From a virus, in the IMG/VR virus record IMGVR_UViG_3300045988_027757: a DNA stretch of 13,031 bases; one strand, given 5' to 3'. The translations under genes and the position numbers were made by a program. Shown here one piece after another: positions 131 through 13,031 of the stretch. The notes under the pieces are model-generated. The model was not told the origin of the DNA. It did no database searches and saw only the letters and a program-made list of their open reading frames with translations. The stretch's first letter is position 1. Each line of letters opens with the position of its first letter.

Positions 131-2371
131 TTAAATAGCTGTAGTGGAAATTTGCTGAATGTTTGTAGGGGCACCCAGTTTTGAGTACTTTGTAGGGTCA
201 AACCCGTTGATGAATCCAAACGTACAGTTGCCCGCACCAAACTGAACACCTGCTGTGTAGGCGGGCGATATATCCCATCCAGAAAGTCGGGTAATAAAGC
301 ACCACTCCGAACCGACAAATACAGCTGGTGCGTTTTCTCCATGTAGGGTATTGCGCACTACCGTAATATCGTCCACGAGGGTTCCAATGCCGTCTGAGAT
401 TTGAATCGGACGCGATACATCAATAAAAGTACAATGACTGATAGATACTGCCTTACACCCCCCTTCGATGTAAATACCATTCATGGGAGCCGTCGCGAGG
501 AACTGGCATGTATTGATAACAGCAGTTGATTTTACCAGTCGTATGCCGTATGCCGTGGCGTTACTATAGCTGTTTATAATATGTACTGCACCCTGAAGAC
601 AATTTGTTAAGTAAATACCAGTATTCGGGCACTGGTCTGCAATGAAACCATCAATCAGAATGTCCCAAACCGTTGAGGGGGTCGAGGTTGCGTTAATCCA
701 TATGCCATTGGAGTTGCTACATTCACAGTTGCTGATATAAATATCTCGAATGTCGTTAGAAGAATCAGCAAGGAACATCCACCTATCCCCTGTAGCACTG
801 CCGAGGCTGGAAATGCAGTTTTCTGCGCGGAAAGAGGCGTTGCCGGAGATACCAGTTGCACCCGTGGAATTCTCTACTAAATGATAACTTGTAATAGGCT
901 TAGAGGTTTCAAGTGCAATATCATGTATAATATTGCGCACCTGCATATTGACAGTATGCGCACATTCTAACACTTTACGGCAACCGATTATAAACATATC
1001 CTCAATGAAGAATCGCTCAGAATACTCCGAAGTAAAAGCCGCGTCTACCGCATCTGTTGTACCGATAATAACGCCATTGCGAAAAATAGTGCGCTCCACA
1101 TGGGCTGTATTACTGCCGTTAAAAATGAATTTGCTGTTGGCAGTAGTGAGCTTAATAACACACCCCTGCAAATCGTATGTTGTGTGCGGTTGAAGATAAA
1201 TATTATTACTCACAATGTATGTAGTATCAGTGCCCAGTCCCTCATATGTAGCAGGACGACCAAACTTCACTGTACCCTCATAATCGGAGAGATAATTGCT
1301 GATAGCAGACCCTAAATCACCTTCATAATTAAACCAGTCAACCAGTACAACGCTATCGGTCATCTTGATCGTGCCGTTGTTTGCTTTACGGAAATGACAG
1401 TTAGCACCGGCAATCGGTGCGGTGATGGTTACTGTGCATGTGGTCGCAATCAACATTGCGTTGTACGCAAAATAGGAGCCGGTCAGTGTGACGTCCTGTG
1501 TAATATTGTATGTACCATCCGGGAACAGCAGTGGAAGACCAGATGCCATAGCACGCTTAATTGCCTCCGTATCATCCGCTAAGCCGTTGCCTAATGCACC
1601 GTAGTCCTTAACGTTAGCAAATGCACCAGAGGATTTGTCCTCAATCTGTTTTTGTAATTTCTTATCTGCCTCAATACGGGCCTGTGTCTCATTGCCAATA
1701 GCCGTCTGAAGCTGGGTGTCGGCGTCCTTCCGGGCCTGTGTCTCATTGTCAATATCCGTCTGAAGCTGGGTGTCGGCGTCCTTCCGGGCCTGTGTCTCAT
1801 TGTCAATATCCGTCTGAAGCTGGGTGTCGGCGTCCTCCCGAGCCGCTTTCTCTGCGCTCAAGCCCTCATTAAATGCGGTGATAAGGTAGTTCAGAACTTC
1901 ATTTGTGGAGCTGCTGACGCAGTTGGAGCCGGGCACGTAAGCATCACCGGCGGACATTGTTTTTGTGACACGTACCAGCGCCCCGTTTACCCAGACAAGA
2001 TCGTTGACCGCTCTATCCGCTGTCGCGGTGGGGCTATGCCCCTCATCGTTGGGAGTAATGGCTTTTTTGACATCGGCCCAAAGTTCATCGAAATTGCCAA
2101 TTTTGGTCCAGAACTCGGTACGATCCAGAGACACACCGGACGGCACCGGCTGTACGGAAAGATAGGCGTTGCCGTTGCTGTCCACAACAACGGTGTTTGC
2201 CTCATACTGGCTTGTGATGTCCCACTGAATCGGGTTTGCGTACTTGATCGTGGCCAAACTGACAAAATTTGTCAGTTTGGTATTAAACTCGTTTAGTACC
2301 TCCATAATCCAATCAAGATTGAGATCATGGAAATTGGTGTAGGGCGCTTTGTGAATAGGATCAATATTCAT
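131..2371 (-). CDS. Tailspike / pre-neck-appendage-like receptor-binding protein with a right-handed beta-helix (pectate-lyase-like) domain
   Basis: 746-aa ORF, the last gene of the late block. ATG at 2371 is preceded by AAGGAG. After the N-terminal region comes a triple 18-aa coiled-coil repeat, then the motif AFANVKDYGALGNGLADDTEAIKRAM. That motif is typical of pectate-lyase-3 / tailspike beta-helix N-caps. It is followed by a long repetitive N/G/S/T/I-rich region consistent with beta-helix rungs. Confidence 0.85.
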   Translation of the reverse strand: MNIDPIHKAPYTNFHDLNLDWIMEVLNEFNTKLTNFVSLATIKYANPIQWDITSQYEANTVVVDSNGNAYLSVQPVPSGVSLDRTEFWTKIGNFDELWADVKKAITPNDEGHSPTATADRAVNDLVWVNGALVRVTKTMSAGDAYVPGSNCVSSSTNEVLNYLITAFNEGLSAEKAAREDADTQLQTDIDNETQARKDADTQLQTDIDNETQARKDADTQLQTAIGNETQARIEADKKLQKQIEDKSSGAFANVKDYGALGNGLADDTEAIKRAMASGLPLLFPDGTYNITQDVTLTGSYFAYNAMLIATTCTVTITAPIAGANCHFRKANNGTIKMTDSVVLVDWFNYEGDLGSAISNYLSDYEGTVKFGRPATYEGLGTDTTYIVSNNIYLQPHTTYDLQGCVIKLTTANSKFIFNGSNTAHVERTIFRNGVIIGTTDAVDAAFTSEYSERFFIEDMFIIGCRKVLECAHTVNMQVRNIIHDIALETSKPITSYHLVENSTGATGISGNASFRAENCISSLGSATGDRWMFLADSSNDIRDIYISNCECSNSNGIWINATSTPSTVWDILIDGFIADQCPNTGIYLTNCLQGAVHIINSYSNATAYGIRLVKSTAVINTCQFLATAPMNGIYIEGGCKAVSISHCTFIDVSRPIQISDGIGTLVDDITVVRNTLHGENAPAVFVGSEWCFITRLSGWDISPAYTAGVQFGAGNCTFGFINGFDPTKYSKLGAPTNIQQISTTAI
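1678..1839. repeat. Tandem direct repeat, 3 x 54 nt, inside the tailspike gene
   Basis: Units begin at 1678, 1732 and 1786 (gggcctgtgtctcattg[c/t]caata[g/t]ccgtctgaagctgggtgtcggcgtcct[t/c]cc). They encode DADTQLQT(D/A)I(D/G)NETQAR(K/I) three times. Confidence 0.95.
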
Positions 2372-2384
2372 AAATCACATCTCC

Positions 2385-3074
2385 TTAATATACCAGCAAA
2401 CAAAAGTTTGCCCGGATGTCCGTAACGATTTTATGAACGGCGTTCTCCATTGCAAGGGTCAACTCTTTGGCAATAAGGTCTTGCGGGTCCCGTCCTGCCC
2501 GGCCCTTCTCGGTCACGGTGTCATTGTAGCCGTCGTGTAACTCCGAGACATTGTCATCGGTTGTTGTCTGATCGGTGGTGGTCGTGTCCGTGCCGCTGCT
2601 GGTAATAGTGTTCCCAGTACCGAGGGCCGTTGTGCTCCTCTCCGCAGTTTGTAATGCCCCACTGTCGAACCCCGTGACGTCCCGGGTTGTGATGTCACTG
2701 CCGTTATTATGGCCGGTGGTAGTCAGGTTAGGCGCTCTTGTGGTAGTTCCCTTCACGCCGTTAGTGCGGTTAATTGTGCCGCCGCTGGTTCCTGCATGGT
2801 CGGTGGTTCTGGTTCGGTCATCGGACGCCAAAGCGTCGTATTTAAGGCCCAGGGCCTCAGCGTACCGGGTCCAGCTCGGGAGCATGGTTTCAGAATAGAC
2901 GCCCAGTGCCCTGCGCATCGTGGGGCCGTCCGCATACAATACCTCTAATTCCAGCGTATCAAACAGTAATTGATTGCAGACATTATCTTTAGATACACTG
3001 TCGGGAACTTTCAAGTCATCGAACAGCTCCGGGTATCCCGACAGCAACCCGTTAAAGCTCAACGTTGCGTGCAT
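2385..3074 (-). CDS. Lower collar / tail tube protein (phi29 gp11 position)
   Basis: 229-aa ORF. ATG at 3074 is preceded by AGGAGGTGA. It lies directly between the connector and tailspike genes, as gp11 does in phi29. It has a long T/G/S/D-rich central segment. The call rests mainly on synteny. Confidence 0.55.
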   Translation of the reverse strand: MHATLSFNGLLSGYPELFDDLKVPDSVSKDNVCNQLLFDTLELEVLYADGPTMRRALGVYSETMLPSWTRYAEALGLKYDALASDDRTRTTDHAGTSGGTINRTNGVKGTTTRAPNLTTTGHNNGSDITTRDVTGFDSGALQTAERSTTALGTGNTITSSGTDTTTTDQTTTDDNVSELHDGYNDTVTEKGRAGRDPQDLIAKELTLAMENAVHKIVTDIRANFCLLVY

Positions 3075-3993
3075 CGTTGTTCACCTCCTGCGCCCCAGTA
3101 TCGGGCGGAAAACGCCAATCGACCCATAAAGTAGATTTGTCAATTCCAAAGAGCTTGTGTACTCGCTCACACCCATGCTGCAAGCTGTCCAACCATAGCG
3201 ACGCTTTGGCGGCTGTCTCCACGTTGTTCGAATTGACTTCGTCGGTCAGCATCCGCTCTTTCTTGCTGGTGTTTGTGTTTGGGATGCCTACTTCTGTGTC
3301 AAACAACGCTTTAATGGTTTTAAGGGCTGTTAGCAGTTCGTTGGTGATGAAGTTTCCTTTGAGGTCGGTTGCAAAGTACATCCATGGTGCTTGACCAGAT
3401 GCCCCATTTTTAGGCGCTTTGAGCAAAGAGGCATCAACAAAAACTGCGGGGTCACCCTGCATAATCGCGTCAAACATCTTTTTGAAAGATTCCGCACCCG
3501 CTTTGTCGCCTGCCGCGAACACGTAGGCAAGGCGGCTATTGATTAAATTGCTCTGGATGGTCTGGGCGGTAAGGGCCATCATGTCCCCGTAATATGCCAC
3601 AATATCCACCATACCGCGGTAATCGGGCTGCAAATTGATGATCTCGCACTGCTTCCCGATTTGCAAATAGGGGGACCCTTTGATAAAAGGGTTTGCAATG
3701 ATGGAGTGTGTGGGATTATAGAAAATGTTGATGCCGGTCAATCCCATTCGGTCATATACGAGGCCGTAGCGGTCAGTATTGAACACCGTAACACCGCCGG
3801 ACCCGAAAACAAGATATTGCAAGCGGTTACTGGGCCATGTGTCGGGGAGCGTCCAGCGGACCATAGATACCGCTTCGAGAAAGAGGTACTTGCGGAAATA
3901 GTAGGATAAGCTGTTACCCTTGGTGTTCATCACGGAGGGAGTCACCGGCGACACATGAGCGTTAATCTGCTCATAGCTGTAGGGTGCACTCAT
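3052..3993 (-). CDS. Head-tail connector (portal, upper collar), phi29 gp10-like
   Basis: 313 aa (phi29 gp10 is about 309 aa). The segment GIPNTNTSKKERMLTDEVNSNNVE matches my recollection of gp10 [24 protein letters not shown]. The AAAGGAGG RBS and an ATGA overlap with the upstream gene support the start. Confidence 0.88.
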   Translation of the reverse strand: MSAPYSYEQINAHVSPVTPSVMNTKGNSLSYYFRKYLFLEAVSMVRWTLPDTWPSNRLQYLVFGSGGVTVFNTDRYGLVYDRMGLTGINIFYNPTHSIIANPFIKGSPYLQIGKQCEIINLQPDYRGMVDIVAYYGDMMALTAQTIQSNLINSRLAYVFAAGDKAGAESFKKMFDAIMQGDPAVFVDASLLKAPKNGASGQAPWMYFATDLKGNFITNELLTALKTIKALFDTEVGIPNTNTSKKERMLTDEVNSNNVETAAKASLWLDSLQHGCERVHKLFGIDKSTLWVDWRFPPDTGAQEVNNDARNVEL

Positions 3994-4526
3994 AACAGAC
4001 GGCCTCCTTTCGCCATTTTAAACAGTAACCACACCGGCAATTTACCAGTAGGCCACGGACCCGGCCCGGGGCCAGGTCCTCCGCCGGAATCCCATTCGAC
4101 GTCCCATGTGCCGACCTGATTTGGGATTCTGATAATGCCGGACGGGTCCCTCAAGTTTCCGGCGGCGTCGGCGTACTCCCAGTGCGTGTGAATGCCCGTT
4201 GCGTTGCCGGTTTTGCCCTGCGTGCCGATAAACTGACCCTTGGAAATGGTGTCACCAACGTTCCAAATCTGCGAGGCAAAGTGAGCGGCTCGCCAGGTGG
4301 TGCCGTCGGCCATCCGTACTTTAATCATGTTTCCCCACGACTGATCACCCGAGGTACTGCCATTCCAGTGCTGCGCCACGACCACAACGCCCGCTTCTGG
4401 CGCGTATGATTTATGGTTGCCGTGTACCGTATCAATGCCCCGATGGGGACTGCCATCCGAGTACGCGGGGTAGCCTGCGGTTACCCGGATGGGGGAAACA
4501 TCCGTAATGCACTGTTTATATGTCAA
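3990..4526 (-). CDS. M23 (LytM-type) zinc metallopeptidase; tail-associated peptidoglycan hydrolase and/or lysin
   Basis: 178 aa with the M23 signatures HRGID (HxxxD) and HTHWE (HxH). It has a TTG start at 4526, 8 nt after AGGAGG. The C-terminus carries a GGGPGPGPGP linker followed by a hydrophobic/basic tail. Confidence 0.85.
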   Translation of the reverse strand: MTYKQCITDVSPIRVTAGYPAYSDGSPHRGIDTVHGNHKSYAPEAGVVVVAQHWNGSTSGDQSWGNMIKVRMADGTTWRAAHFASQIWNVGDTISKGQFIGTQGKTGNATGIHTHWEYADAAGNLRDPSGIIRIPNQVGTWDVEWDSGGGPGPGPGPWPTGKLPVWLLFKMAKGGRLL

Positions 4527-4538
4527 GATTAACGCCTC

Positions 4539-5939
4539 CTACTCATAGAAAAAACCGTTTTTGAGATAGCTTTTAACACTGTCGATCTCTGCCGCTGTGG
4601 CATTGAGCGCGATGTCTGGATCATCTACCATAATGAACCCCGGAATTGTGGACAACTGTACCCGCTTGCACAAGGGCCGTCCGTGGTCCTCATTGTTGTC
4701 GTCCACAAGAATTTTAAAGCGAGCGACCATATACGGTACCGAATCAAAAGCTATTGTAGAACCAGTGGCACCCTTACTTGCAACATCAGCATTGGTTGCT
4801 TGTGCAGCATTTAGAATACCGTTTCCAACGTCTGAGAAAGATCCCCCGGTTAATGCTGCTTGGAGACCTCCGAACGCAGCAGCAATACCCGTTTGCAGCA
4901 GTCCTCCGCCCGATGGTACATCAAATGTAATATTTGAAAGTTGAATAGGTACCCCGAGTTTAGCGGTTGTCTCGTGTACTAGCTGATTTGTATCAGTAAA
5001 CACTCGCAAGATACTGTCGCCGGTGAAAAGATCCACCTTATACTGTATAGATAATGTTGCAGCGCCCCACAATTTAGAGGCACCAAGGGGAATTACTCCA
5101 AATGGCTGCAAGAAGATAGTGTAGTCCGTGTAGGGGGAGGCATTGCAATACCCTCCACGACTTGCCGCTTGTGGGTGCTTCGGAATAGCCACACTTACAG
5201 ATTGTGTTAAATTATTATTATCTTCTCCCAAAATCCAGCACGGAATGTCTACCGACCACCACCCAACATCTACACTAGAAACAAGCGGTAAATGTGCGGT
5301 GATTTTGGCAATACTGAATGGAAAGTAGTTACAACTTACGATATACTGATAGGGATTAAAAAGTATTTTTGTTAAACTGTCACTAATCTCCGCATTGTCT
5401 ATACTAAGGTACGACACATCGGTTAGTAATTTGGCGGAGAGTTTTTTAGCGTTTCCAGACGTCATTACTACATACGTCACCGCTCCAACCGAGTTCGCGT
5501 TTTTAGCTATGAAGCCGATAACAAAGAAGCCCCCGCTGATTGTTTCAGCGAACCCCCCTTGAAAAGCGGTTGTCACACTCTGCACTTTAGCCGTCGCCGG
5601 ATAAAGACCATCTGAAATTGTACCATCAAACCGAGCCGACGACCTCGCCACATACTCTGTAGAGTTTCCAATTTGTTCTCGATAACTCGCCAGCGTGTCA
5701 ACAGTCAGCGATGCAGTCCATAGGCCTTCAGAATACGTCCAGTTCTTAACCCAGTAGTAGCGGCTAAATGTAGGCAGATAGCAATAGTTATATCCCGTCG
5801 GGTCACTCTGTGAGGCAATCTTGATTTCGGGGTTGATAATGTTGCAGGGGGCTTTAAGGTCAATTCCAAACTCATGACCGCCGCTGGGCCGTTTTGTGCT
5901 GTTTGTGCGCTTTGCGAATTGATAAAATGTTGCTTGCAT
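4539..5939 (-). CDS. Tail knob protein, phi29 gp9-like
   Basis: 466 aa, immediately after the capsid gene as in phi29. It has a Gly/Ala-rich hydrophobic segment (GGGLLQTGIAAAFGGLQAALTGG...). The C-terminal part (GFIMVDDPDIALNATAAEIDSVKSYLKNGFF) parallels my recollection of the gp9 pore-forming loop and C-terminus ([27 protein letters not shown]). RBS is AGGAGG. Confidence 0.75.
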   Translation of the reverse strand: MQATFYQFAKRTNSTKRPSGGHEFGIDLKAPCNIINPEIKIASQSDPTGYNYCYLPTFSRYYWVKNWTYSEGLWTASLTVDTLASYREQIGNSTEYVARSSARFDGTISDGLYPATAKVQSVTTAFQGGFAETISGGFFVIGFIAKNANSVGAVTYVVMTSGNAKKLSAKLLTDVSYLSIDNAEISDSLTKILFNPYQYIVSCNYFPFSIAKITAHLPLVSSVDVGWWSVDIPCWILGEDNNNLTQSVSVAIPKHPQAASRGGYCNASPYTDYTIFLQPFGVIPLGASKLWGAATLSIQYKVDLFTGDSILRVFTDTNQLVHETTAKLGVPIQLSNITFDVPSGGGLLQTGIAAAFGGLQAALTGGSFSDVGNGILNAAQATNADVASKGATGSTIAFDSVPYMVARFKILVDDNNEDHGRPLCKRVQLSTIPGFIMVDDPDIALNATAAEIDSVKSYLKNGFFYE

Positions 5940-5950
5940 AAACGCCTCCT

Positions 5951-5984
5951 AAAAAAATAACCGGCGAGCGTACTGCCCGCCGGT
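5951..5984 (-). terminator. Rho-independent terminator after the major capsid gene
   Basis: In minus sense: ACCGGCGGGC-AGTAC-GCTCGCCGGT (10-bp stem including one G-U pair), followed by TATTTTTTT. It begins 5 nt after the TGA at 5990-5992. The RBS of the next gene follows immediately. Confidence 0.8.
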
Positions 5985-5989
5985 GCCGG

Positions 5990-7264
5990 TCAGGACTTAG
6001 AGGGGTCGGCGTCCTTGTACGTGGTGGTTTTCAGGGTGGAGGCTTTTGCCGCCTGGGTATCTTTCGGCGCAGTAACGTCTCCGGTGGTCATCAGGAAGAG
6101 CACGGCGTTCTCGGTGAAGTCATCGTACCACGTCCACCCGTAGTGATACCAGAAATTCGTATAAAGGCCACGGGCGTTCATGGGCGTAGGGACCACACGG
6201 GACAGCTTAGGATTATAGCCGATGGCATCCCAGTCCAGCAGGCACCCGAACACATTGGAGAGCTGCACTGCTGCATTCTTGGATGCCACACCGGCAGCAG
6301 TGGTCACAACAGGTGTCGCGGTAATGGTCTCGCGCTTGTCGATGTTCTGCCAGAACGTCACCTGCTCCGCGTCGCGGTATTTCAACATGTTATCGTGGAA
6401 CACCTCGGGAATCACGCGGGCGTCAATCTGGCTCTGCGTGCCACTGTACAGATAGAGGTGCTGGCGATCATACGGAGTGTGTCGCATGATGTTGTACGTC
6501 GTGCCGTCGATCGTCCAATTCTGGTGCCAATTGATGGAACGTTCCTTCATCAGGCGGGAAATATCGTTGATGCGGCCATAGGCGTATTTTGCAAAACCCG
6601 GGAAGTTCGCTTCTTTGTAGACGTCCTGCACCGTCAGTTCTGTGCCCTGCTGGGCGTTGTACTCATCAAGCAAATACACAACGCTGTGTGGGTTAGTCAC
6701 AGTCATGCCGGTCAGATGGTTGGCCATCAGGTTGTTGGCCAGGTTTCGCCGGTCTGCCTCGATCTGGTTCGACAGATGCAGCACGAACGAGGACCAGAAC
6801 TGCGCCAGTTCCTCGGGGCCTTTGAAGGCCGCTTCCATCTGGGTATCAGCCTGCGTGTACACGCGGCTGTAATTGGTCTGACCATAGTAGTTAGTTTGAA
6901 GGACTTTAGGCTTGTGGACTTCATACATATCCGCGCTTTGACCGTCCACCAGCGCCCACGCCTTGTCGGTGACGGGGTCAGTGTCGCAGAAATTGATCTT
7001 CCGCACATGGTTAGACCAGTCGTCACCCGTGACCTGCAAGCGCTTCAGGGGCGCGTCATAGGGACGGACGGCGAAAATGGTACGGCCCAGCACTTGGCTG
7101 ATCGCTTTAGTGTAGTTATCGGTGCCGGTCAGCAGAGTGGCCTGCGCCACCGAAACGAAGCTGGATGTGTCCACGATGGGCGACGTCGTTTTCTGGCCGG
7201 TTGCCATTTTGTTGATTTCGGTCAAAATTGCGGCAATATCCGCAAAATCCATGCCGAGGTGCAT
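5990..7264 (-). CDS. Major capsid protein, phi29 gp8-like (HK97 fold expected)
   Basis: 424 aa. MNARGLYTNFWYHYGWTWYDDFTENAVLFL matches my recollection of phi29 gp8 [30 protein letters not shown]. It follows the scaffold gene. RBS is AAAGGAAGTGA. Confidence 0.9.
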   Translation of the reverse strand: MHLGMDFADIAAILTEINKMATGQKTTSPIVDTSSFVSVAQATLLTGTDNYTKAISQVLGRTIFAVRPYDAPLKRLQVTGDDWSNHVRKINFCDTDPVTDKAWALVDGQSADMYEVHKPKVLQTNYYGQTNYSRVYTQADTQMEAAFKGPEELAQFWSSFVLHLSNQIEADRRNLANNLMANHLTGMTVTNPHSVVYLLDEYNAQQGTELTVQDVYKEANFPGFAKYAYGRINDISRLMKERSINWHQNWTIDGTTYNIMRHTPYDRQHLYLYSGTQSQIDARVIPEVFHDNMLKYRDAEQVTFWQNIDKRETITATPVVTTAAGVASKNAAVQLSNVFGCLLDWDAIGYNPKLSRVVPTPMNARGLYTNFWYHYGWTWYDDFTENAVLFLMTTGDVTAPKDTQAAKASTLKTTTYKDADPSKS

Positions 7265-7265
7265 A

Positions 7266-7625
7266 TCACTTCACTTCCTTTCCGTAGGTGGGGTCGATGA
7301 TTCGGGCTGTCACAGTAGCGGCATCTGCCGCCGGCTGCTGCTGGATACCAAGGCCCAGCGCGTTTGCCTGCAACGTCTGGGTCATAGTCTGCATTGCCTG
7401 GGCGTTGGTCTGCTGGCCCTGCAAAATCTCCCGCAACAGGGTTTCGAGGCCGTCATACTGCGGCGCGGGCTGCGGCGCGGGCTGCGGCACGGGCTGTAGC
7501 GCGGGCTGCGGCACGGGCTGCGGCACGGGCTGCGGCACGGGCTGCGGCACGGGCTTCTCCATAGCTTCGATCTCTGCTTTGGTGTATCCGGCCATTGCGA
7601 GGGCCGCTTTTTCACTGATTTTCAA
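7266..7625 (-). CDS. Scaffolding protein candidate with a (P-x-P-Q) repeat linker
   Basis: 119 aa, directly upstream of the capsid gene (the phi29 gp7 position). TTG start at 7625 lies 7 nt after GGAGGCG. A helical, Q/A/L-rich C-terminal half follows PVPQPVPQPVPQPVPQPALQPVPQPAPQPAPQ. Confidence 0.6.
   Translation of the reverse strand: MKISEKAALAMAGYTKAEIEAMEKPVPQPVPQPVPQPVPQPALQPVPQPAPQPAPQYDGLETLLREILQGQQTNAQAMQTMTQTLQANALGLGIQQQPAADAATVTARIIDPTYGKEVK
7458..7553. repeat. Tandem direct repeat, 8 x 12 nt, inside the scaffold gene
   Basis: ctgcggc[g/a]cggg occurs eight times with one variant unit (ctgtagcgcggg). It encodes the Pro-Gln repeat. Confidence 0.95.
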
Positions 7626-7845
7626 CTTTTGTCGCCTCCATTACAACGTATGTGTCATGTGCCAGGCATCTAACGACCTGGTCTTTGTCTCCTTTGGACA
7701 GAGGGCCCACCGCGCAATACTGCCGCGTGTGAGCGACGTCTGCCCAGTCGCTATAGTAGCCGATTTTCAAACGAGTGCACAGGTCAGCCAGCAGAAACGC
7801 ACGCTCGTTTGTGATCGACTGGGCGAAAATGATATAACAACCCAT
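7612..7845 (-). CDS. Hypothetical protein (77 aa), second gene of the late block
   Basis: ATG at 7845 is preceded by AAGGAAAG. It is tightly packed between the holin candidate (2-nt gap) and the scaffold gene (14-nt overlap). No motif recognised. Confidence 0.55.
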   Translation of the reverse strand: MGCYIIFAQSITNERAFLLADLCTRLKIGYYSDWADVAHTRQYCAVGPLSKGDKDQVVRCLAHDTYVVMEATKVENQ

Positions 7846-7847
7846 AG

Positions 7848-8006
7848 TTAGCTTTCCTTCTTGATGTCGTCCAGGGCGAGCCGCATCTCGGTAATAGCCG
7901 CAGTGTTCTCCTTGACAACGGTATTACACTGATACCACATTAGCAAAAAAGCGGCGATAGGAAACCCAACGTTAGAAATAGCCTGAATCACAGTATTAGC
8001 ATCCAT
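7848..8006 (-). CDS. Small membrane protein, BhlA/UviB-like holin candidate (52 aa, not in the ORF track)
   Basis: Hand translation gives MDANTVIQAISNVGFPIAAFLLMWYQCNTVVKENTAAITEMRLALDDIKKES. ATG at 8006 lies 5 nt after GGAGGTG, and the stop is TAA at 7848. It has one N-terminal hydrophobic helix followed by a charged helical tail. The pattern resembles BhlA-family holins (GPFAVLFCWLLFYVMKTSKERESKL, from memory). Confidence 0.5.
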   Translation of the reverse strand: MDANTVIQAISNVGFPIAAFLLMWYQCNTVVKENTAAITEMRLALDDIKKES

Positions 8007-8037
8007 TTGAGCACCTCCATATTAAATATAAATACAA

Positions 8038-8109
8038 TAATCCCAGGTTCTTGCGCTGGCTGACGCTTGCCCGCCCCTTCTGGGGGCTGCCTGTGGGCGC
8101 CTGGGATTA
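8038..8109 (-). ncRNA. GC-rich structured RNA element (candidate pRNA-like RNA or late-operon leader)
   Basis: A 10-bp helix, TAATCCCAGG (8100-8109) pairing with CCTGGGATTA (8038-8047), encloses 52 GC-rich nt. Inside is a GCCCC-CAGAA-GGGGC hairpin, plus possible CGC/GCG and GGC/GCC helices. It starts at the predicted transcription start of the promoter at 8115-8143. It is followed by AUUAUUGUAUUUAUAUUU. Confidence 0.35.
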
Positions 8110-8114
8110 ACTTT

Positions 8115-8143
8115 AATATATATCACCCGTATAAAAAAGTCAA
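8115..8143 (-). promoter_or_regulatory. Sigma-A/sigma-70-type promoter for the late (lysis and structural) block
   Basis: In minus sense: TTGACT (8138-8143), a 17-nt spacer, then TATATT (8115-8120). The -35 box overlaps the ATPase stop codon. This is the only near-consensus promoter I found inside the genome. Confidence 0.6.
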
Positions 8144-9201
8144 GTACCGCAATACTCGCGAAAGAAAATTTCATCCGAGTATCGCTCAAACTCAATTTGC
8201 CTCTGCAAATACGCGGGCCAGATATACCCATACGCGGCCCTGAATCGTTTACGCTCATAATCGCCGGTGCCGTATGTGGGCATCTCGCCGGACCGATGCC
8301 GGCACACATAGTAGAGGGGTTTACTCTTATGCTCATAGATGCAGCACCGCCCAATTTGAACAAGGGGGTAGTATTCCCGGAGGGGCCGAGATACAACAAG
8401 ACTTTTCTCCTCGGCACTGTACTGGTTTTCAATAGCGGACCTATAAAAGTCCGTTCCGGTCATGGACCTATAGAGGGCCGTATTGGCTTTCTCTTTGGCA
8501 ATAGGGCTGTCCACAAGATCAATCAAAAGAATCCCTTTATCGGCCAACAGCTTTACGCGCTCTTTCTTGCCGATCATCTTTTCGACTGTATCGGTGATTT
8601 CCCACTGCATATAATAGGGGTTTGCCATCCCTACCGCATTTGACATACAGAGAAGCGTCAAAGGCTTCTGGCCCTTAAGTTCGCGGTTACGGTTGACTGT
8701 CTCATAAATGTTGGCAAGGCCCACCCCCTCCCCCCGCCGGTAATAGTCGGACTCTTCTTTCTGGTATTCGTCCAAGATAATTATATTGGTATGGGGGCTT
8801 GAAAAACCACGGGTGCGAGCAAGAGTCACCACACTACCCACTAAGCCCGACATCTTGGCCGGTTTTATGGGAGCCCCTGTATCCGTGTAGGCTCCCGCGT
8901 TGCCCACTTCATACAGTCCCGTTATTTTGGGCAATTTGAACGGGGCGTAATGTGTTTGCAAATCATCGTTCAACGGAGACCACGGCCACATACTGGGTGA
9001 CGCGCAAATGAGTTCCGCTTGCTGCGGAGTCCTACGCAAATACAGAAATTCGTCGCCGGTCTGGTGAACGTGCTTTAGCGCCCCGTAGGTCTTGCCGGTA
9101 CCACGCCCGCCCCAGATGAAAATAATGGGGGCTCCTGTGGACAAAATGCCATCCTTTTCAGAAAAATTCGGCCAACCTTCATCGGTGTACAGTTTAATCA
9201 T
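8140..9201 (-). CDS. DNA packaging (encapsidation) ATPase, phi29 gp16-like
   Basis: 353 aa with Walker A GGRGTGKTY and Walker B IIILDE. DEFLYLRR and CMSNAVGMANPYY match my recollection of gp16 EQFIYVRR and CLSNAVSVVNPYF. The start overlaps the polymerase stop (TGATG) and follows GGAGG. Confidence 0.92.
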   Translation of the reverse strand: MIKLYTDEGWPNFSEKDGILSTGAPIIFIWGGRGTGKTYGALKHVHQTGDEFLYLRRTPQQAELICASPSMWPWSPLNDDLQTHYAPFKLPKITGLYEVGNAGAYTDTGAPIKPAKMSGLVGSVVTLARTRGFSSPHTNIIILDEYQKEESDYYRRGEGVGLANIYETVNRNRELKGQKPLTLLCMSNAVGMANPYYMQWEITDTVEKMIGKKERVKLLADKGILLIDLVDSPIAKEKANTALYRSMTGTDFYRSAIENQYSAEEKSLVVSRPLREYYPLVQIGRCCIYEHKSKPLYYVCRHRSGEMPTYGTGDYERKRFRAAYGYIWPAYLQRQIEFERYSDEIFFREYCGT

Positions 9202-11291
9202 CAGACAACCTCCATAATCTTATACCCAAGTATCTTTGCGTATTCGTCAGTGATACCCAACGTGTAGGTATTATCACAAATACACAGGTTTCTTGTTATA
9301 TGTACCGTATGACCGTCAACCACAAAATCGGGCACATTGGGCCGGTCATTATAAATAACCTGATTTCCGGCGGCAAGACAGAACGTAAAGCCGGGCTTGA
9401 ATACCTCAAAACCACCCCATAGGGCCAGCTCCAAACCGCCTTTCCGCTTGCTAACTCCTGCTATGGTAGTAGTAATCGGCCCGCCTTTTTTATAGGTAGT
9501 AGCGTATTTCTTAGCGCCCCACGTCATAAACTCCGCGTAGCTGCGCTCTTGCTCATAAACGCCCATGTAATGAGTATTGCCTTTGGGGTCTGTAGCGCAA
9601 GCACCGTTGTCTTTTGCAAGCTGTTTCACAGATTTGTTAAACTCCGCTAAATCAATATTACCCATGTATTTGACGCTGTCCGTGTCGCAGTACACGCCAT
9701 TTTTGCCCGCGGCCCATTGCGCTATTTTTAGGCGCTTGCGGGTGTGAGCGGTTGTCCATACGCCCCATTGATACGGTAGGAACAAATGGGGGCGGTGGTC
9801 GTTATAACTGCCCTCCGGGTCGTCGGTGCATTCGCTCCACAGATCGTCGGGGTCGTCCTCGTCAAAAAGTGTGTCCAGCTGCAAGGGGTCCTGTGCTGTC
9901 ATGCCGTAGTAGCTATTGAGATCGCCCTTGGCTTTGACATAATACAAATCTTGACCGGCTACACCTTTAAGAGATGTTTTGCCGGTGTAACTCTCTTTTA
10001 CACAATCCGTCAAGGGCTTTGGCAGTTTGTCATAATCGGACGTCCAGAGGTCCAGAACGTTAAGGGCGTCCCAATCATATTCTTTGGCAATGATTCTAAA
10101 ATCTATATCTGTTATGGTGATCTCGAAATGTTCAGCAGACAGCAAACGACCATTGTCGTTAATGTATCCTTCACAGTGCCGGACTTTCGCAAGCGGGATA
10201 TAGGGAAACCCCCACCACTTAAACCGCTGGCGCAAACCTTTTACTTGCAAGCGCATCAAGCACGCCTTGCCGTGCCTCATACATTGCATCAGCCGCACGA
10301 CGGTGGCCGGTTCCTGCTTAAATGGAGTCATAGGAAAATAACATTCACATTGTACGGCGGGGTACGCACTCGACATATCCACGGAACCGACGTTTTCTAG
10401 GTGCAAACCCACATAATAGCGGTTGGCGTGAGTGTCACCACCTCGGAAAGCCTCCCGCAGCATCTGGTAAAGGTCCCATGACGGAAGCAACCTCTTGACC
10501 CGTTTAATGCCCCATTCGTACATGGCCGAGCGTGCCATTCGTCTGACGTAACCAGTGCGCGTCAGTGGCAATGAATACAGGTCGTCGCCGTCTCGCTTCA
10601 TCTCAATTAACAAGCACTCCACAATACAGCGAACATCGTTGATACAATACGCTAATTCTGTAGACGTTAAGGGAGTCCATGGATAACGAACCTTTGAATA
10701 ATCAAGTGCCCCGGTCAATTTGGCATGAGGGGCACCCAACTGTTTGCCCCATGCGTCAAGGGACAAATTGCTATGGCGCATACTGCATCGATATTCAATA
10801 GCGCGGTTGTCGCATTTTAAGACCCTTCGGGGCTTGCTGGCGAATACGTCGCCGGGGCCAAAATCCAGAACCCCCGACAGATATTGGAATTCGTGAGCGA
10901 GATTATGGACGTACATACACAGAAACCAGTCACCCTGCGGGCCGCTGTTTGCTTGCAAATAGTCGCTGATTGCTCCCGTAAAGTTCAGCCACTCGTCCCA
11001 CGTCCTACCAATAATGGTAATATCCAGACCAAGTTGACACTGCCAAATATACATTATGGTGTGTGGATTGTCGTCCGCATCTACACATACTCGGCTAGTC
11101 TCGATATCAAACGCACATGGGGCATTAACGTACAAGCGTTTCTTATTTGTTTTGCGTTTTTTGCCTTTGGTGTGCTTTCTGTCCAAATGCTCCATGAGCC
11201 ACGGGACAGGGTTATAATTACAAGCCTCCGCCAAAACCTCCGCGCAGGTCGGCGGAACTGCTGCCGTCACTGTAGTCCCATTCTTTGCCAT
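9201..11291 (-). CDS. Family-B DNA polymerase, protein-primed type (phi29 gp2-like)
   Basis: Motifs present: ExoI AFDIETS, ExoII YVHNLAHEF, ExoIII YCINDVRCIVE, motif A VDMSSAYP, motif B KGDLNSYYG, motif C YCDTDS (9675-9692) and KxY GAKKYA. Long insertions lie between motifs A/B and B/C, where the TPR1 and TPR2 insertions sit in phi29. The track ORF starts at GTG 11303. I prefer ATG 11291 because AAGGTGAGG lies 6 nt upstream of it. Confidence 0.95.
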   Translation of the reverse strand: MAKNGTTVTAAVPPTCAEVLAEACNYNPVPWLMEHLDRKHTKGKKRKTNKKRLYVNAPCAFDIETSRVCVDADDNPHTIMYIWQCQLGLDITIIGRTWDEWLNFTGAISDYLQANSGPQGDWFLCMYVHNLAHEFQYLSGVLDFGPGDVFASKPRRVLKCDNRAIEYRCSMRHSNLSLDAWGKQLGAPHAKLTGALDYSKVRYPWTPLTSTELAYCINDVRCIVECLLIEMKRDGDDLYSLPLTRTGYVRRMARSAMYEWGIKRVKRLLPSWDLYQMLREAFRGGDTHANRYYVGLHLENVGSVDMSSAYPAVQCECYFPMTPFKQEPATVVRLMQCMRHGKACLMRLQVKGLRQRFKWWGFPYIPLAKVRHCEGYINDNGRLLSAEHFEITITDIDFRIIAKEYDWDALNVLDLWTSDYDKLPKPLTDCVKESYTGKTSLKGVAGQDLYYVKAKGDLNSYYGMTAQDPLQLDTLFDEDDPDDLWSECTDDPEGSYNDHRPHLFLPYQWGVWTTAHTRKRLKIAQWAAGKNGVYCDTDSVKYMGNIDLAEFNKSVKQLAKDNGACATDPKGNTHYMGVYEQERSYAEFMTWGAKKYATTYKKGGPITTTIAGVSKRKGGLELALWGGFEVFKPGFTFCLAAGNQVIYNDRPNVPDFVVDGHTVHITRNLCICDNTYTLGITDEYAKILGYKIMEVV

Positions 11292-11817
11292 AGTTGACCT
11301 CACCTTGCTGCCACTTTACAAAATCGTCAATACTGACATTGTAGCCGCCTTTCTCGCGCCAGTACATAACCGGCTGGTCGGACGGATAATAGTACACTCC
11401 CGTTGCCTTTACGATCTCCCACCACTCAGACAGGGCCGTGTATTGATCTTCCGGCACATCGGCAATGTCAATACCACCAACTTTCATTTTTTGCTCAAAT
11501 TTTGCCCGCGCACCGCCAACAGTGGAGCCTTTGGAGCGCACAAAACGCGCTACATCCGCAAGGGCCTGTTCCAATGCTTTGCGGTCTCCCCGCATTGCTT
11601 TCAGGGTAGGGAAACCTCCGGCAAATTCTTTATAAACATCGCTGGTGCCGCTGATGGGGTCTTTTGATAATCGCTTGATACGTTTCTGCGCAATGTCACG
11701 TAGTCGGGTGTACTCTTTACGCATCTGCTTATCGGGCCAAGACTCCAAGGCGTAGGGGGTGTACAGCTCGGAGCTGTATTTTAGGGTTGCACTTGCTTTA
11801 GCTGCGCCTGCTGCCAT
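11218..11817 (-). CDS. Terminal protein candidate (primer for DNA replication)
   Basis: 199 aa, immediately upstream of and overlapping the polymerase gene, which is the phi29 gene 3 / gene 2 arrangement. KEYTRLRDIAQKRIKRL resembles my recollection of the phi29 TP N-terminus AEYARLVKNTKAKIARTKKKY. The Ser/Tyr-rich C-terminus (WDYSDGSSSADL) could hold the priming residue. Confidence 0.6.
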   Translation of the reverse strand: MAAGAAKASATLKYSSELYTPYALESWPDKQMRKEYTRLRDIAQKRIKRLSKDPISGTSDVYKEFAGGFPTLKAMRGDRKALEQALADVARFVRSKGSTVGGARAKFEQKMKVGGIDIADVPEDQYTALSEWWEIVKATGVYYYPSDQPVMYWREKGGYNVSIDDFVKWQQGEVNYGKEWDYSDGSSSADLRGGFGGGL

Positions 11818-12028
11818 GCTTCTCCCGCTCCTTTCTATTCATAATCATATAATACCAGTTGAGGGGGTCTGCTTCAATTCCTAGGCCGTTGAAAATGATT
11901 TTGGCCCATTCAGAGCGGAAAAACTTTACATCATTTGTTGTGACTCCACTATATACAATGGCCGTTGCGAGGTAGATCAAATAATCGTCGCAGTTAAGCA
12001 AGGATACTCTGTTATCTTTACTTTTCAT
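11798..12028 (-). CDS. Hypothetical early protein (76 aa) with a basic C-terminus
   Basis: ATG at 12028 lies 4 nt after TAGGAGG. It overlaps the TP gene start by 20 nt. No motif recognised. Confidence 0.6.
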   Translation of the reverse strand: MKSKDNRVSLLNCDDYLIYLATAIVYSGVTTNDVKFFRSEWAKIIFNGLGIEADPLNWYYMIMNRKEREKHGSRRS

Positions 12029-12040
12029 GGGGCCTCCTAT

Positions 12041-12068
12041 AATAAATAAGGGCGGCCATAGGCCGCCC
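12041..12068 (-). terminator. Rho-independent terminator inside the early operon
   Basis: In minus sense: GGGCGGCC-TAT-GGCCGCCC (8-bp all-GC stem, 12050-12068), followed by TTATTTATTAT. It lies 5 nt after the TAA at 12074-12076. Confidence 0.7.
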
Positions 12069-12073
12069 GCCGG

Positions 12074-12373
12074 TTAGAACGGCAACTCGTCGCCTTTGTC
12101 GTTACGGCCGGAAATAACAAGTTCCGGATAACCCTTGTCGTTTTCCTCGACGGTCAAAACGACATTGCGCAGGGTAATCTTCCGCATCCAGTCGGAAACG
12201 GTCTCTTCGGGGTCAATCTTGACGGACACAGACGGCGCATCGTATTGGCCAGATTTCAGCCACATTTCACCGTCATCAATCTGGACTTCGTCCTCAAATT
12301 CGGGCAACTTAATGTAATTCATGTTGGATTTAAGGGACTCACCGGTGGACTTTTTGTGGTTGCGTTTCATCAT
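12074..12373 (-). CDS. Small acidic early protein (99 aa) ending in an SSB-like C-terminal tip (GDELPF)
   Basis: I start it at ATGATG (12373), 10 nt after AAAGGA. The 195-aa track ORF extends upstream through a different frame of the 88-aa gene with Arg-rich, junk-like sequence. The protein has a basic N-terminus (MMKRNHKK), an acidic body, and the terminal residues DELPF. Confidence 0.65.
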   Translation of the reverse strand: MMKRNHKKSTGESLKSNMNYIKLPEFEDEVQIDDGEMWLKSGQYDAPSVSVKIDPEETVSDWMRKITLRNVVLTVEENDKGYPELVISGRNDKGDELPF

Positions 12374-12405
12374 GGTATTGATTCCTTTCTGCCCTGTCTC
12401 ATCAG

Positions 12406-12443
12406 TACCGGACGGGCTACCCGGTAGACGGCCCGTAGGCCGT
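12406..12443 (-). other. Two adjacent GC-rich hairpins in the 76-nt gap between early genes
   Basis: First hairpin: taccgg (12406-12411) pairs with ccggta (12421-12426) around a 9-nt loop. Second hairpin: acggcc (12428-12433) pairs with ggccgt (12438-12443) around a 4-nt loop. An alternative ACGGGC/GCCCGT pairing bridges the two. No U-tract follows. Confidence 0.4.
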
Positions 12444-12449
12444 TTCGAC

Positions 12450-12716
12450 TCATTTCTTGTCGTATAAAGAGTACATGGCCCTGACACCATCTCGGACGTG
12501 ATCCGCGCCCTGATACATGAGATCGGCTGACAAGCACGTCCCTTTGAAGCCCTTAAGCGTCTCAACCTGCTCATCGCAATGCTTGAGTGCTTGCCGATAA
12601 CCGGCCAACCACGCACGATCAGTTGCGGCCCAAATGGATTCTTTAGGGTCCTCATACTCACAGCACGTCAGCGACCCGTCGGGGTGTATCTCAATGATGA
12701 ATTTACGCATTTCCAT
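12450..12716 (-). CDS. Hypothetical early protein (88 aa, four Cys)
   Basis: ATG at 12716 lies 7 nt after AGGAGAG. The start is embedded in the last codons of the upstream 58-aa gene. No motif recognised. Confidence 0.65.
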   Translation of the reverse strand: MEMRKFIIEIHPDGSLTCCEYEDPKESIWAATDRAWLAGYRQALKHCDEQVETLKGFKGTCLSADLMYQGADHVRDGVRAMYSLYDKK

Positions 12717-12879
12717 TTGTGGACTCTCCTATCTGTAAAAAACTCAAAGTCTTTGAAAGACTGACAAGCATCTTGATGCTGTCGATAATATCGTTCTCTG
12801 TCAGTTCTAGGATATTCTCACCATCAAGAGTAATATTATCATCGGTTAAATCGATAGTAATCGTGATTTCTTTTTTCAT
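12703..12879 (-). CDS. First early gene: small, strongly acidic protein (58 aa, not in the ORF track)
   Basis: Hand translation gives MKKEITITIDLTDDNITLDGENILELTENDIIDSIKMLVSLSKTLSFLQIGESTNGNA. ATG at 12879 is preceded by AAAGGGGGTG. It has 11 Asp/Glu against 4 Lys. Its 14-nt overlap with the next gene start suggests translational coupling. Confidence 0.6.
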   Translation of the reverse strand: MKKEITITIDLTDDNITLDGENILELTENDIIDSIKMLVSLSKTLSFLQIGESTNGNA

Positions 12880-12932: not shown

Positions 12933-12961
12933 ATTGTATATGTTGCTATTTACATTGTAAA
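12933..12961 (-). promoter_or_regulatory. ITR-embedded promoter-like element, right copy, pointing at the early genes
   Basis: In minus sense: TTTACA, a 17-nt spacer, then TACAAT ending exactly at the inner ITR boundary. It is in tandem with the extended -10 element 8 nt further downstream. Confidence 0.45.
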
Positions 12962-13031
12962 AATTGCTGTACTCCCCTACCCTACCGAGTGCAGAGGGAG
13001 GGATTTTTCTTATAGGTATGTTAGCAATGAC
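12933..13031. repeat. Right inverted terminal repeat (99 bp)
   Basis: Exact reverse complement of bases 1-99. Confidence 0.95.

Follow-up and report, generated by a model that had tools for sequence, protein, structure and literature searches.

Introduction

The phage proteins T7 gp2.5 and T4 gp32 are binding proteins for single-stranded DNA (SSBs) with an oligonucleotide/oligosaccharide-binding (OB) fold, in which an acidic tail, ending in a terminal Phe in gp2.5, serves protein contacts and self-regulation (PMC12339929). In Escherichia coli dnaX, recoding gives a replication protein (tau/gamma) with and without a C-terminal partner-binding module. In Bacillus, the C-terminal signature of SSB (SSB-Ct), D-D-D-I/L-P-F, mediates the SSB interactome and acts as a docking peptide for genome-maintenance proteins (PMC3000357). 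Host-like tips on phage SSBs are already known, but on OB folds, as in Bas52_0087. Phage SSBs recurrently trigger defense systems (10.1101/2022.08.27.505566; PMC13402713; PMC13381803; 10.64898/2026.02.22.705581), which offers a rationale for the swapping of SSB alleles described below. Here, we describe a gene for a protein of 99 amino acids (aa), located at 12074..12373 on the minus strand of the IMG/VR virus record IMGVR_UViG_3300045988_027757, a stretch of 13,031 nucleotides (nt) that was analyzed as a whole and is called the window hereafter.

With a probability of roughly 0.5, the 99-aa protein is a novel-fold SSB analogue acting in protein-primed strand-displacement replication, with a tail that carries the host SSB docking tip. 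An earlier note, made from the DNA letters alone, had pointed to the tip and offered two readings, a highly reduced phage SSB or a decoy for host proteins. In the literature, no description was found of the family to which this protein belongs, nor of a non-OB scaffold bearing an SSB-Ct tip, nor of an SSB-type tip gated by frameshifting.

Exchange with a phi29-type SSB

The GenBank record MT836263.1 is 86.6% identical to positions 1749-12048 of the window, with a protein-primed family-B DNA polymerase (PolB) that is 95% identical, and the likeness ends exactly at the hairpin that follows the 99-aa gene. In the slot between its homologues of the 88-aa and 76-aa open reading frames (ORFs) of the window, MT836263.1 encodes a 144-aa protein, which matches Phi29_Phage_SSB (PF17427; 36.6 bits, cut-off 25) and the SSB family phrog_6243 (E 1.5e-18). 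The remark in the earlier note that the phi29-type SSB has no such tip holds, as phi29 p5 ends in ...SLQLSL and the 144-aa relative in ...LSLNLV.

At least 121 loci with an SSB of the 144-aa type are present in IMG/VR. Among 145 loci searched by local tblastn, the 99-aa family alone was found in 62 and the phi29-type SSB alone in 81, while none had both and two had neither, these being phi29 itself and L062, a distant family member. Between the flanking homologues there is always exactly one occupant, the 99-aa family in 51 loci and the phi29-type SSB in 79. Homologues of the 58-aa and 88-aa ORFs border the slot in both allele types, and both alleles share the upstream intergenic region with its ribosome-binding site and the start of the next gene, each having its own terminator stem. 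In both slot classes, the terminal protein (TP) shows a median identity of 94% to its counterpart in the window. In addition, neither PF00436 nor PF17427 was matched by the 16 largest ORFs of the window (52-746 aa), a tblastn search with the 144-aa SSB against the complete window gave no hit, and no other recognizable SSB was found in the longer relatives L145-L148, where the only match was a spurious antisense one.

Such a clean one-for-one displacement of a phi29-type SSB suggests that the 99-aa protein is an SSB analogue, and this non-orthologous displacement is the best evidence that it does the job of an SSB. Of the two readings in the earlier note, that of a reduced phage SSB gains strong, though indirect, support from this mutual exclusion with Phi29_Phage_SSB in one slot of replication modules that are ~94% identical. 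Because near-identical PolB and TP work with the tip-less phi29-type SSB, an essential phage-encoded partner of the tip is unlikely; the host, or else the protein itself, is a more likely source of the partner than the replisome of the phage.

The 99-aa protein and its family

The coding sequence, stop codon included, extends from an ATG at 12373..12371 to a TAA at 12076..12074 and translates to MMKRNHKKSTGESLKSNMNYIKLPEFEDEVQIDDGEMWLKSGQYDAPSVSVKIDPEETVSDWMRKITLRNVVLTVEENDKGYPELVISGRNDKGDELPF. It had been described from the letters as encoding a small, acidic protein ending in GRNDKGDELPF, and the 99-aa product indeed has this ending, an isoelectric point (pI) of 4.77 and a net charge of -6. 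Residues 1-17 (12323..12373, minus strand) make up a Lys/Arg-rich N-terminal arm with a net charge of +4 that is predicted to be disordered, and a basic N-terminus is present in every family lineage. The AlphaFold model and conservation define residues 18-89 (12107..12322, minus strand) as the conserved core, consisting of a short helix and five beta strands, with a net charge of -9. The last ten residues, RNDKGDELPF (90-99; 12077..12106, minus strand), form a short tail of low confidence that carries the SSB-Ct-like tip, the codons of GDELPF lying at 12077-12094.

Two AlphaFold2 runs, with 28 and 121 sequences, agree with each other, with a mean predicted local distance difference test (pLDDT) of 80 and block means of 81-95 over residues 21-90; a short helix is predicted together with strands at residues 30-38, 48-54, 57-62, 65-77 and 83-89, and disorder at both ends. 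In the earlier note the body was not recognized as a canonical OB-fold SSB, and structure prediction with a Foldseek search for an OB fold was proposed as a check. The outcome agrees with that view, in that a confident five-strand beta domain was obtained with no significant Foldseek match and no Pfam, PHROG or PDB-sequence match. Scans of Pfam and PHROG with the 99-aa protein and 28 family members gave no match (for the 99-aa protein against Pfam, at E<=1), and a sequence-profile search of the PDB returned only noise, with a GH57 amylase at E 0.22 as the best hit and no SSB. Profile comparison by hhalign gave probabilities of 0.1% with phi29 p5 and 0.2% with the phi29 p6 double-stranded DNA-binding protein, and the 99-aa protein did not match Phi29_Phage_SSB (PF17427). 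A tblastn match to a cyanophage gp32-type SSB (E 0.04) was dismissed as chance because its hhalign probability was 2%. As modeled, the 99-aa protein lacks a recognizable OB fold.

A word-indexed search yielded 442 close homologues, none of them annotated, with 74-100% identity among the best 120. In an exhaustive search of 1.84 billion cluster representatives, 21 clusters were found at E<=1e-3, down to 28-31% identity, two of which are repeat-protein artefacts, and a profile built from distant members gave 121 further proteins. For the metagenome scan, alignment A1 was too diverse and A2 was used in its place. The giant proteins P0136 and P0140 were rejected as family members, since they are FG-GAP, RHS or Ig-repeat proteins and match by composition. 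The family is known only from metagenomes, mostly of the human gut, and comes from contigs of phi29-like phages of 13 to 17 kb; wherever context exists, the gene is located one to two genes upstream of a TP-sized gene and PolB, and this synteny is kept across lineages at 30-45% identity. W38 is invariant, and G42, Y44, S60, R64, I66, N78, G81, Y82, L85 and I87 are each at least 90% conserved in the family, so that the most conserved positions include aromatics and one basic residue (W38, Y44, R64 and Y82). Together with the placing of an ordered core between two disordered ends, this resembles the architecture of an SSB. Acidity of the core is not a conserved property, the pI within the family ranging from 4.6 to 9.6.

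The SSB-like tip

The likeness of the ending to the SSB tip, on which the earlier note was built, stands in part: the last three residues and one acidic position of ELPF fit D-D-D-I/L-P-F, but the full DDD run is absent. If amino acids occur at their typical frequencies, roughly 5e-5 of proteins would end in [DE][LIMV]PF by chance, and the stronger argument is the conservation of the tip. The survey of relatives that had been recommended found a D-[LIMV]-P-F end in ~45 of the 120 best homologues and in 6 of ~19 distant representatives (31-49% identity), the latter ending in EDIPF, SDLPF, ADLPF, GDIPF, GDLPF and ADLPF; the remaining ones among the 120 end mostly in ...DEDDAGDE. The linker before the tip varies freely in length and sequence while the tip persists, and the tip peptide takes forms such as KGDELPF, DDAGDLPF and EEFVPLPDDEDLPF.

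In L040 and L041, 24 nt at the 3' end of the gene are duplicated in tandem, from the codons of the tip through the stop into the beginning of the terminator (GATCTACCATTCTAAACGGTGGGC). Of the two copies, the first is the one translated; L041 keeps it intact, whereas in L040 it has degenerated to DLPL. This end of the gene appears to be prone to slipped-strand events.

An out-of-frame tip in relatives

In most close relatives of the window, frame 0 stops at GAG_TGA_G and the tip continues in the +1 frame. In L001, for example, the gene ends in ...GAT GAG TGA, and 25 nt further on GAT TTG CCG TTC TAA encodes DLPF and a stop in the +1 frame. Two types of gene end occur in 53 loci: either the tip is in frame, as in the window, or frame 0 ends in ...DDAGDE-TGA, with (S)EEF[VI]P[LC]PD[DE]xDLPF and a stop in the +1 frame. 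Most close relatives have an extra cassette of 28-31 nt, consisting of the TGA stop and the +1-frame extension, which is absent from the window; there, the point of insertion corresponds to the codon junction GAG (E96)/TTG (L97) at 12085..12086 (minus strand), where the tip is fused in frame.

The 16 distinct cassettes have lengths of 46, 49 or 52 nt, all 1 mod 3, and the frame is kept through 3-nt indels. Their frame-0 stop is TGA in 16/16, the genes with an in-frame tip ending in TAA in 15/15, and GAGTGAG is found in all 16 cassettes, a further variant (L022) having GGGTGAG. Variable columns fall mostly on third positions of the +1 frame, and the ratio of synonymous to nonsynonymous codon differences is 258:324 in this frame, the two remaining frames giving 79:444 and 44:490. 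When the eight pairs with the greatest divergence are compared, +1-frame codon positions 1, 2 and 3 differ at 12, 9 and 55 of 104 each, and four-fold sites of core genes in these pairs have diverged by 0.5-0.68. This codon-position signature of purifying selection argues that the extension is translated in the +1 frame.

Since the +1 frame has no ATG, GTG or TTG start that is conserved, a shifty-stop +1 frameshift or a GAG-to-GAG +4 hop would be the simplest route to the tip. The candidate junction peptides are ...DDAGDE-E-EFVPLPDDEDLPF for the +1 shift and ...DDAGDE-EFVPLP... for the +4 hop; the hop is possible but does not fit variant L022. We infer that a programmed +1 frameshift at GAG_UGA_G in the sister phages would yield tip-less and tipped isoforms.

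Other routes were considered and rejected. Independent initiation of the extension is contradicted by the replacement of an internal TTG with CTG, CTT or TGC in several lineages and by the conservation, as protein, of the residues upstream of it. Reading of TGA as sense (codes 4 or 25) would lead into a frame-0 continuation that is unconserved and stops after 7-8 codons, and transcriptional slippage would have only homopolymer runs of <=5 nt, of which the longest is not conserved. A Shine-Dalgarno (SD)-like GCGGG[AGTC]GA is located 1-3 nt upstream of the shift site; it also encodes the conserved A-G-D, is present in genes of the direct type too, and has a variable base that includes C. A weak hairpin is predicted across the shift site of the cassette loci (alignment A5, columns 20-43), with one covarying pair, GAC...GTC versus GAT...ATT, reflecting an Asp wobble versus Val/Ile; as a stimulator it was rejected, being too weak and wrongly placed.

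In a neighbor-joining tree of the core, the cassette-free window, L008 and L012 are nested in the cassette clade, and the deletions in these three are of 28 or 31 nt, bringing the tip back in frame each time. The 17-kb phage lineage L054/L055, 44% identical, has a frame 0 that ends in GAG GGG TAA and VNGIYFPSNSDFVVIELDDEDLPF with a stop in the -1 frame, which could be reached by a slip on G_GGG. No relatives of this lineage were found in IMG/VR and the protein database has its own cluster only, so the case amounts to one lineage.

Two observations were made beside these. In L007 (996-1130), the 28-nt cassette is present twice in tandem (GATGAGTGAGGAATTTATTTCTCTGCCC), so that the ribosome would have to shift to +1 twice before reading the tip; the duplication may have arisen in assembly or may mark a genuine variant with little tip. 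L148, a 17-kb relative with a -1-frame tip, encodes at 7432-8690 a thymidylate synthase and a dUTPase/dCTP-deaminase-like protein. Phages of the phi29 kind do not usually have these, and a connection with uracil or with Ung, an SSB client, is possible.

Proposed function and alternative explanations

In the mechanism proposed for the SSB analogue, the five-strand beta domain, which would have neither an OB nor a phi29 p5 fold, coats displaced single-stranded DNA (ssDNA), and the tip ([DE]-[LIM]-P-F) would plug into the pocket used by host SSB clients, which in Bacillota include RecJ, RecQ/RecS, RecO, RecG, PriA, Ung, XseA and SbcC. By means of the tip, the phage could recruit chosen clients to its own ssDNA or compete with host SSB for them. 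Frameshifting in most sister phages would tune the dosage of the tip per filament or oligomer; in the window allele, which has lost the cassette by the equivalent of a 31-nt deletion, every molecule carries the tip. A wider scenario, in which a family of non-OB beta domains of ~70 residues replaced the phi29-type SSB in gut podophages and frameshifting (+1 after GAG_UGA_G, or -1 after G_GGG_UAA in a distant lineage) sets the share of tipped subunits as a viral rheostat on host SSB clients, possibly shaped by SSB-sensing defense, is put forward tentatively and with more doubt than confidence.

Several points weigh against these interpretations. The displacement pattern is also compatible with loss of the phage SSB and gain of a helper, mosaic slots can hold functionally unrelated genes, and the phages could simply use host SSB. 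Foldseek searches of the PDB (two models) and of BFVD gave no match better than E 0.3 with a template modeling (TM) score of ~0.3; among the 50 top-ranking matches, chains of bacterial SSBs turn up repeatedly, but at E>=1.5, TM<=0.21 and a root-mean-square deviation of ~14 A, and are not counted as evidence. The core is strongly acidic in the clade of the window (net -9), and the tip of the window, KGDELPF, is less acidic than the SSB-Ct consensus D-D-D-I/L-P-F (PMC3000357). Some clades have no tip in any frame, ending in ...LLIRPADSE (a 95-aa clade), ...VISGNV or ...LLIQG; neither a tip nor a hidden one was found in the tip-less proteins P0126, P0137, P0138 and P0130, and hidden tips were not found in L056, L057, L059, L061, L062, L145 and L146. 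Since whole large clades do without it, the tip is dispensable for the core function and thus a selected add-on. As for recoding, a P-site GAG_U is unable to pair anew after a +1 shift (AGU), in contrast to the CUU_U of prfB, and only L022 can do so (GGG_U to GGU), so the mechanism would have to be of the occlusion type; moreover, because the upstream GGNGA codes for A-G-D and varies at N, a role as stimulator is inseparable from its coding role. Finally, the isolates nearest by PolB are of low identity, these being Amedibacillus phages AD70P2/P3 (35%) and Clostridium phage HM2 (33%), which make Erysipelotrichaceae or Clostridia candidate hosts.

The second reading of the earlier note, in which the protein does not bind ssDNA and serves as a decoy, host SSB coating the phage strands while the tip fills the pockets of RecJ, ExoVII, SbcCD, Ung and RecQ, is considered unlikely. 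It would suit a protein that is small and acidic, with a tip that equals the host SSB-Ct consensus (PMC3000357), in genomes that have no recognizable SSB of their own and could be served by that of the host; in the same direction, competition with SbcB on ssDNA, or its displacement, has been suggested for an SSB-like phage protein that has an OB fold and the tip FDDDIPF (10.64898/2026.04.29.721553). However, the reading is weakened by whole clades that lack the tip and keep the core and its place by TP and PolB, so that the core must have a function of its own; core acidity varies as described above, and a pure decoy would not be expected to block its only active part by a stop before the tip, as happens in the cassette lineages. 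In another explanation, the tip is not made in the cassette relatives and the 28-31-nt cassette is an inactivating or phase-variable indel, the out-of-frame tip being a relic. GATGA direct repeats do flank the cassette, its copy number is 0, 1 or 2 (two in L007, lost in L008 and L012), GAG_U is unable to re-pair, and no convincing stimulatory structure was found. But a relic would decay, whereas the frame is kept in 16/16 cassettes with differences of 12/9/55 against a neutral divergence of 0.5-0.68, the frame-0 stop is always TGA, GAGTGAG is invariant bar one variant, and a second lineage, L054, has DDEDLPF past its stop in the -1 frame after G_GGG_TAA; that the tip is a mere leftover is, in view of this, quite unlikely.

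The tail could also be used within the phage in the manner of T7 gp2.5 or T4 gp32, folding back on the DNA-binding surface or basic arm of its own protein, or contacting PolB/TP, and its likeness to SSB-Ct would in that case have arisen by convergence. In favor of this, the protein combines a basic N-terminal arm with an acidic tail whose last residue is aromatic, and a phage that encodes PolB and a putative TP itself may be able to replicate without factors of the host. Yet PolB (95%) and TP (~94%) that are nearly identical to those of the window operate with a tail-less phi29-type SSB, and acidic-[LIM]-P-F is kept where polymerases are only 30-45% identical, which fits a conserved host pocket better, making an internal role improbable. 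It would be more improbable still that the gene encodes an unrelated accessory early protein in a mosaic slot, for instance an anti-defense factor, whose LPF ending has some other role or none. No homology or fold match provides a functional handle, and as phage SSBs often trigger defense, the slot may be under diversifying selection (10.1101/2022.08.27.505566; PMC13402713; PMC13381803); against this, the gene is fixed in the replication module of 13-kb and 17-kb genomes, it is exchanged one for one with a true SSB family whose expression signals are the same, and its tip is under selection.

Genome organization

The window has a perfect 99-bp inverted terminal repeat (ITR) at 1-99 and 12933-13031, which indicates that it is a complete linear genome, with a G+C content of 50% and presumably with protein-primed replication. 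Every gene is on the minus strand. From the right end, the order is the early ORFs of 58, 88 and 99 aa, a terminator-like hairpin, the 76-aa ORF, a putative TP of 199 aa and PolB, followed by a gp16-type packaging ATPase, a Phi29_MCP capsid protein, a connector, an M23 peptidase and a pectate-lyase-like tail spike, a gene content from which a small phi29-like podophage is recognized. Human-gut or faecal metagenomes are the source of all its close relatives.

The first transcription unit at the right end comprises the 58-aa (12703-12879), 88-aa (12450-12716) and 99-aa ORFs, which are apparently co-transcribed. Upstream of it, within the right terminal repeat, is a promoter-like site, TTTACA-17-TACAAT (12933..12961, minus strand); being part of the repeat, its left-end copy also points inward. 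An AAAGGA ribosome-binding site (12383..12388, minus strand) precedes the ATG of the 99-aa gene by 9 nt, and the intergenic region around it is conserved in loci with the phi29-type SSB. This region (12374-12449, minus strand; also in L005 and L064), GTCGAAACGGCCTACGGGCCGTCTACCGGG...CCCGTCCGGTACTGATGAGACAGGGCA, is strongly conserved, hairpin-capable and common to loci with either SSB allele; it may act as an attenuator or as a regulatory RNA. Immediately behind the stop of the 99-aa gene, a terminator-like hairpin (12040..12068, minus strand) with eight G-C pairs and a 3-nt loop, followed by TTATTTATT, has its stem-loop at 12068..12050 and divides the early unit from the genes of the 76-aa ORF, TP and PolB. 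In this downstream replication block (9201..12028), the 76-aa ORF is located at 11798-12028, the putative TP, assigned by position only, at 11218-11817 and the protein-primed PolB at 9201-11303.

Further features were noted elsewhere in these genomes. A GC-rich hairpin at 103-124 (CAACCCCTC-AAT-AGAGGGGTTG), situated where the tail-spike gene has ended and the left terminal repeat has not yet begun, may terminate transcription in both directions, stopping the long transcript of the minus strand as well as the promoter in the left ITR. The tail spike (131-2371, minus strand) contains DADTQLQTDIDNETQARK in three tandem copies, and the M23 peptidase (3990-4526, minus strand) has a GPGPGPGP linker. 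A 119-aa ORF at 7266-7625 (minus strand) carries a PVPQ/PAPQ tandem repeat, and its homologues of 107 aa in L001 and 119 aa in L002 suggest variation in repeat number. In the close relative L003, a Dam-type methyltransferase gene (PF05869) is added at 3749-4174, between PolB and the packaging ATPase, and the holin is also different.

Significance and comparison with known systems

If the 99-aa protein is an SSB analogue, it would add a new minimal fold to the ssDNA-binding architectures and would mean that the SSB-Ct peptide can be grafted onto an unrelated scaffold. Its exchange with the phi29-type SSB in near-identical phages is a natural swap experiment, of relevance to the increasing number of defense systems that phage SSBs trigger (Retron-Eco8, Hna, DARNA and DRT10). 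As a practical use, the SSB interactome of Bacillota could be probed or inhibited with the tip-bearing protein. The out-of-frame tip is a candidate for a new shifty-stop site with an extension of 13-15 codons, and would be a rare instance of recoding that doses a protein-interaction motif.

Compared with the OB-fold SSBs (PF00436), such as B. subtilis SsbA and the BASEL phage protein Bas52_0087, which ends in FDDDIPF, the 99-aa protein shares a structured core, a flexible acidic tail, a [DE]-[LI]-P-F end and a replication context (PMC3000357; 10.64898/2026.04.29.721553). Unlike them, it has no detectable OB fold, a core of only ~70 residues, a linker of 10 aa and a basic N-terminal arm, and in its relatives the tip is gated by a putative frameshift. 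With the phi29-type SSB (PF17427) it has in common the slot and expression context, both being small acidic early proteins of protein-primed podophages, whereas sequence or profile similarity is lacking and the acidic tail and LPF tip belong to the 99-aa protein only. The tails of gp2.5 and gp32 bind phage partners; in contrast, the 99-aa protein bears the SSB-Ct signature of the host, and its cognate polymerase also functions where the SSB allele has no tip.

The putative recoding site of the relatives resembles those of prfB (CUU_UGA_C) and of Listeria phage tail-shaft genes (CCC_UGA) in having UGA at the shift site, a G-rich SD-like stretch and a +1 extension (PMC5009743; PMC12421855). It differs from them in that GAG in the P site does not re-pair and in that the extension, of 13-15 codons, brings a docking tip and not a domain. 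In outcome it would parallel dnaX, from which it departs in that in dnaX a -1 shift truncates the product, whereas in these phages the shift would add the module, and to a protein of an unrelated family.

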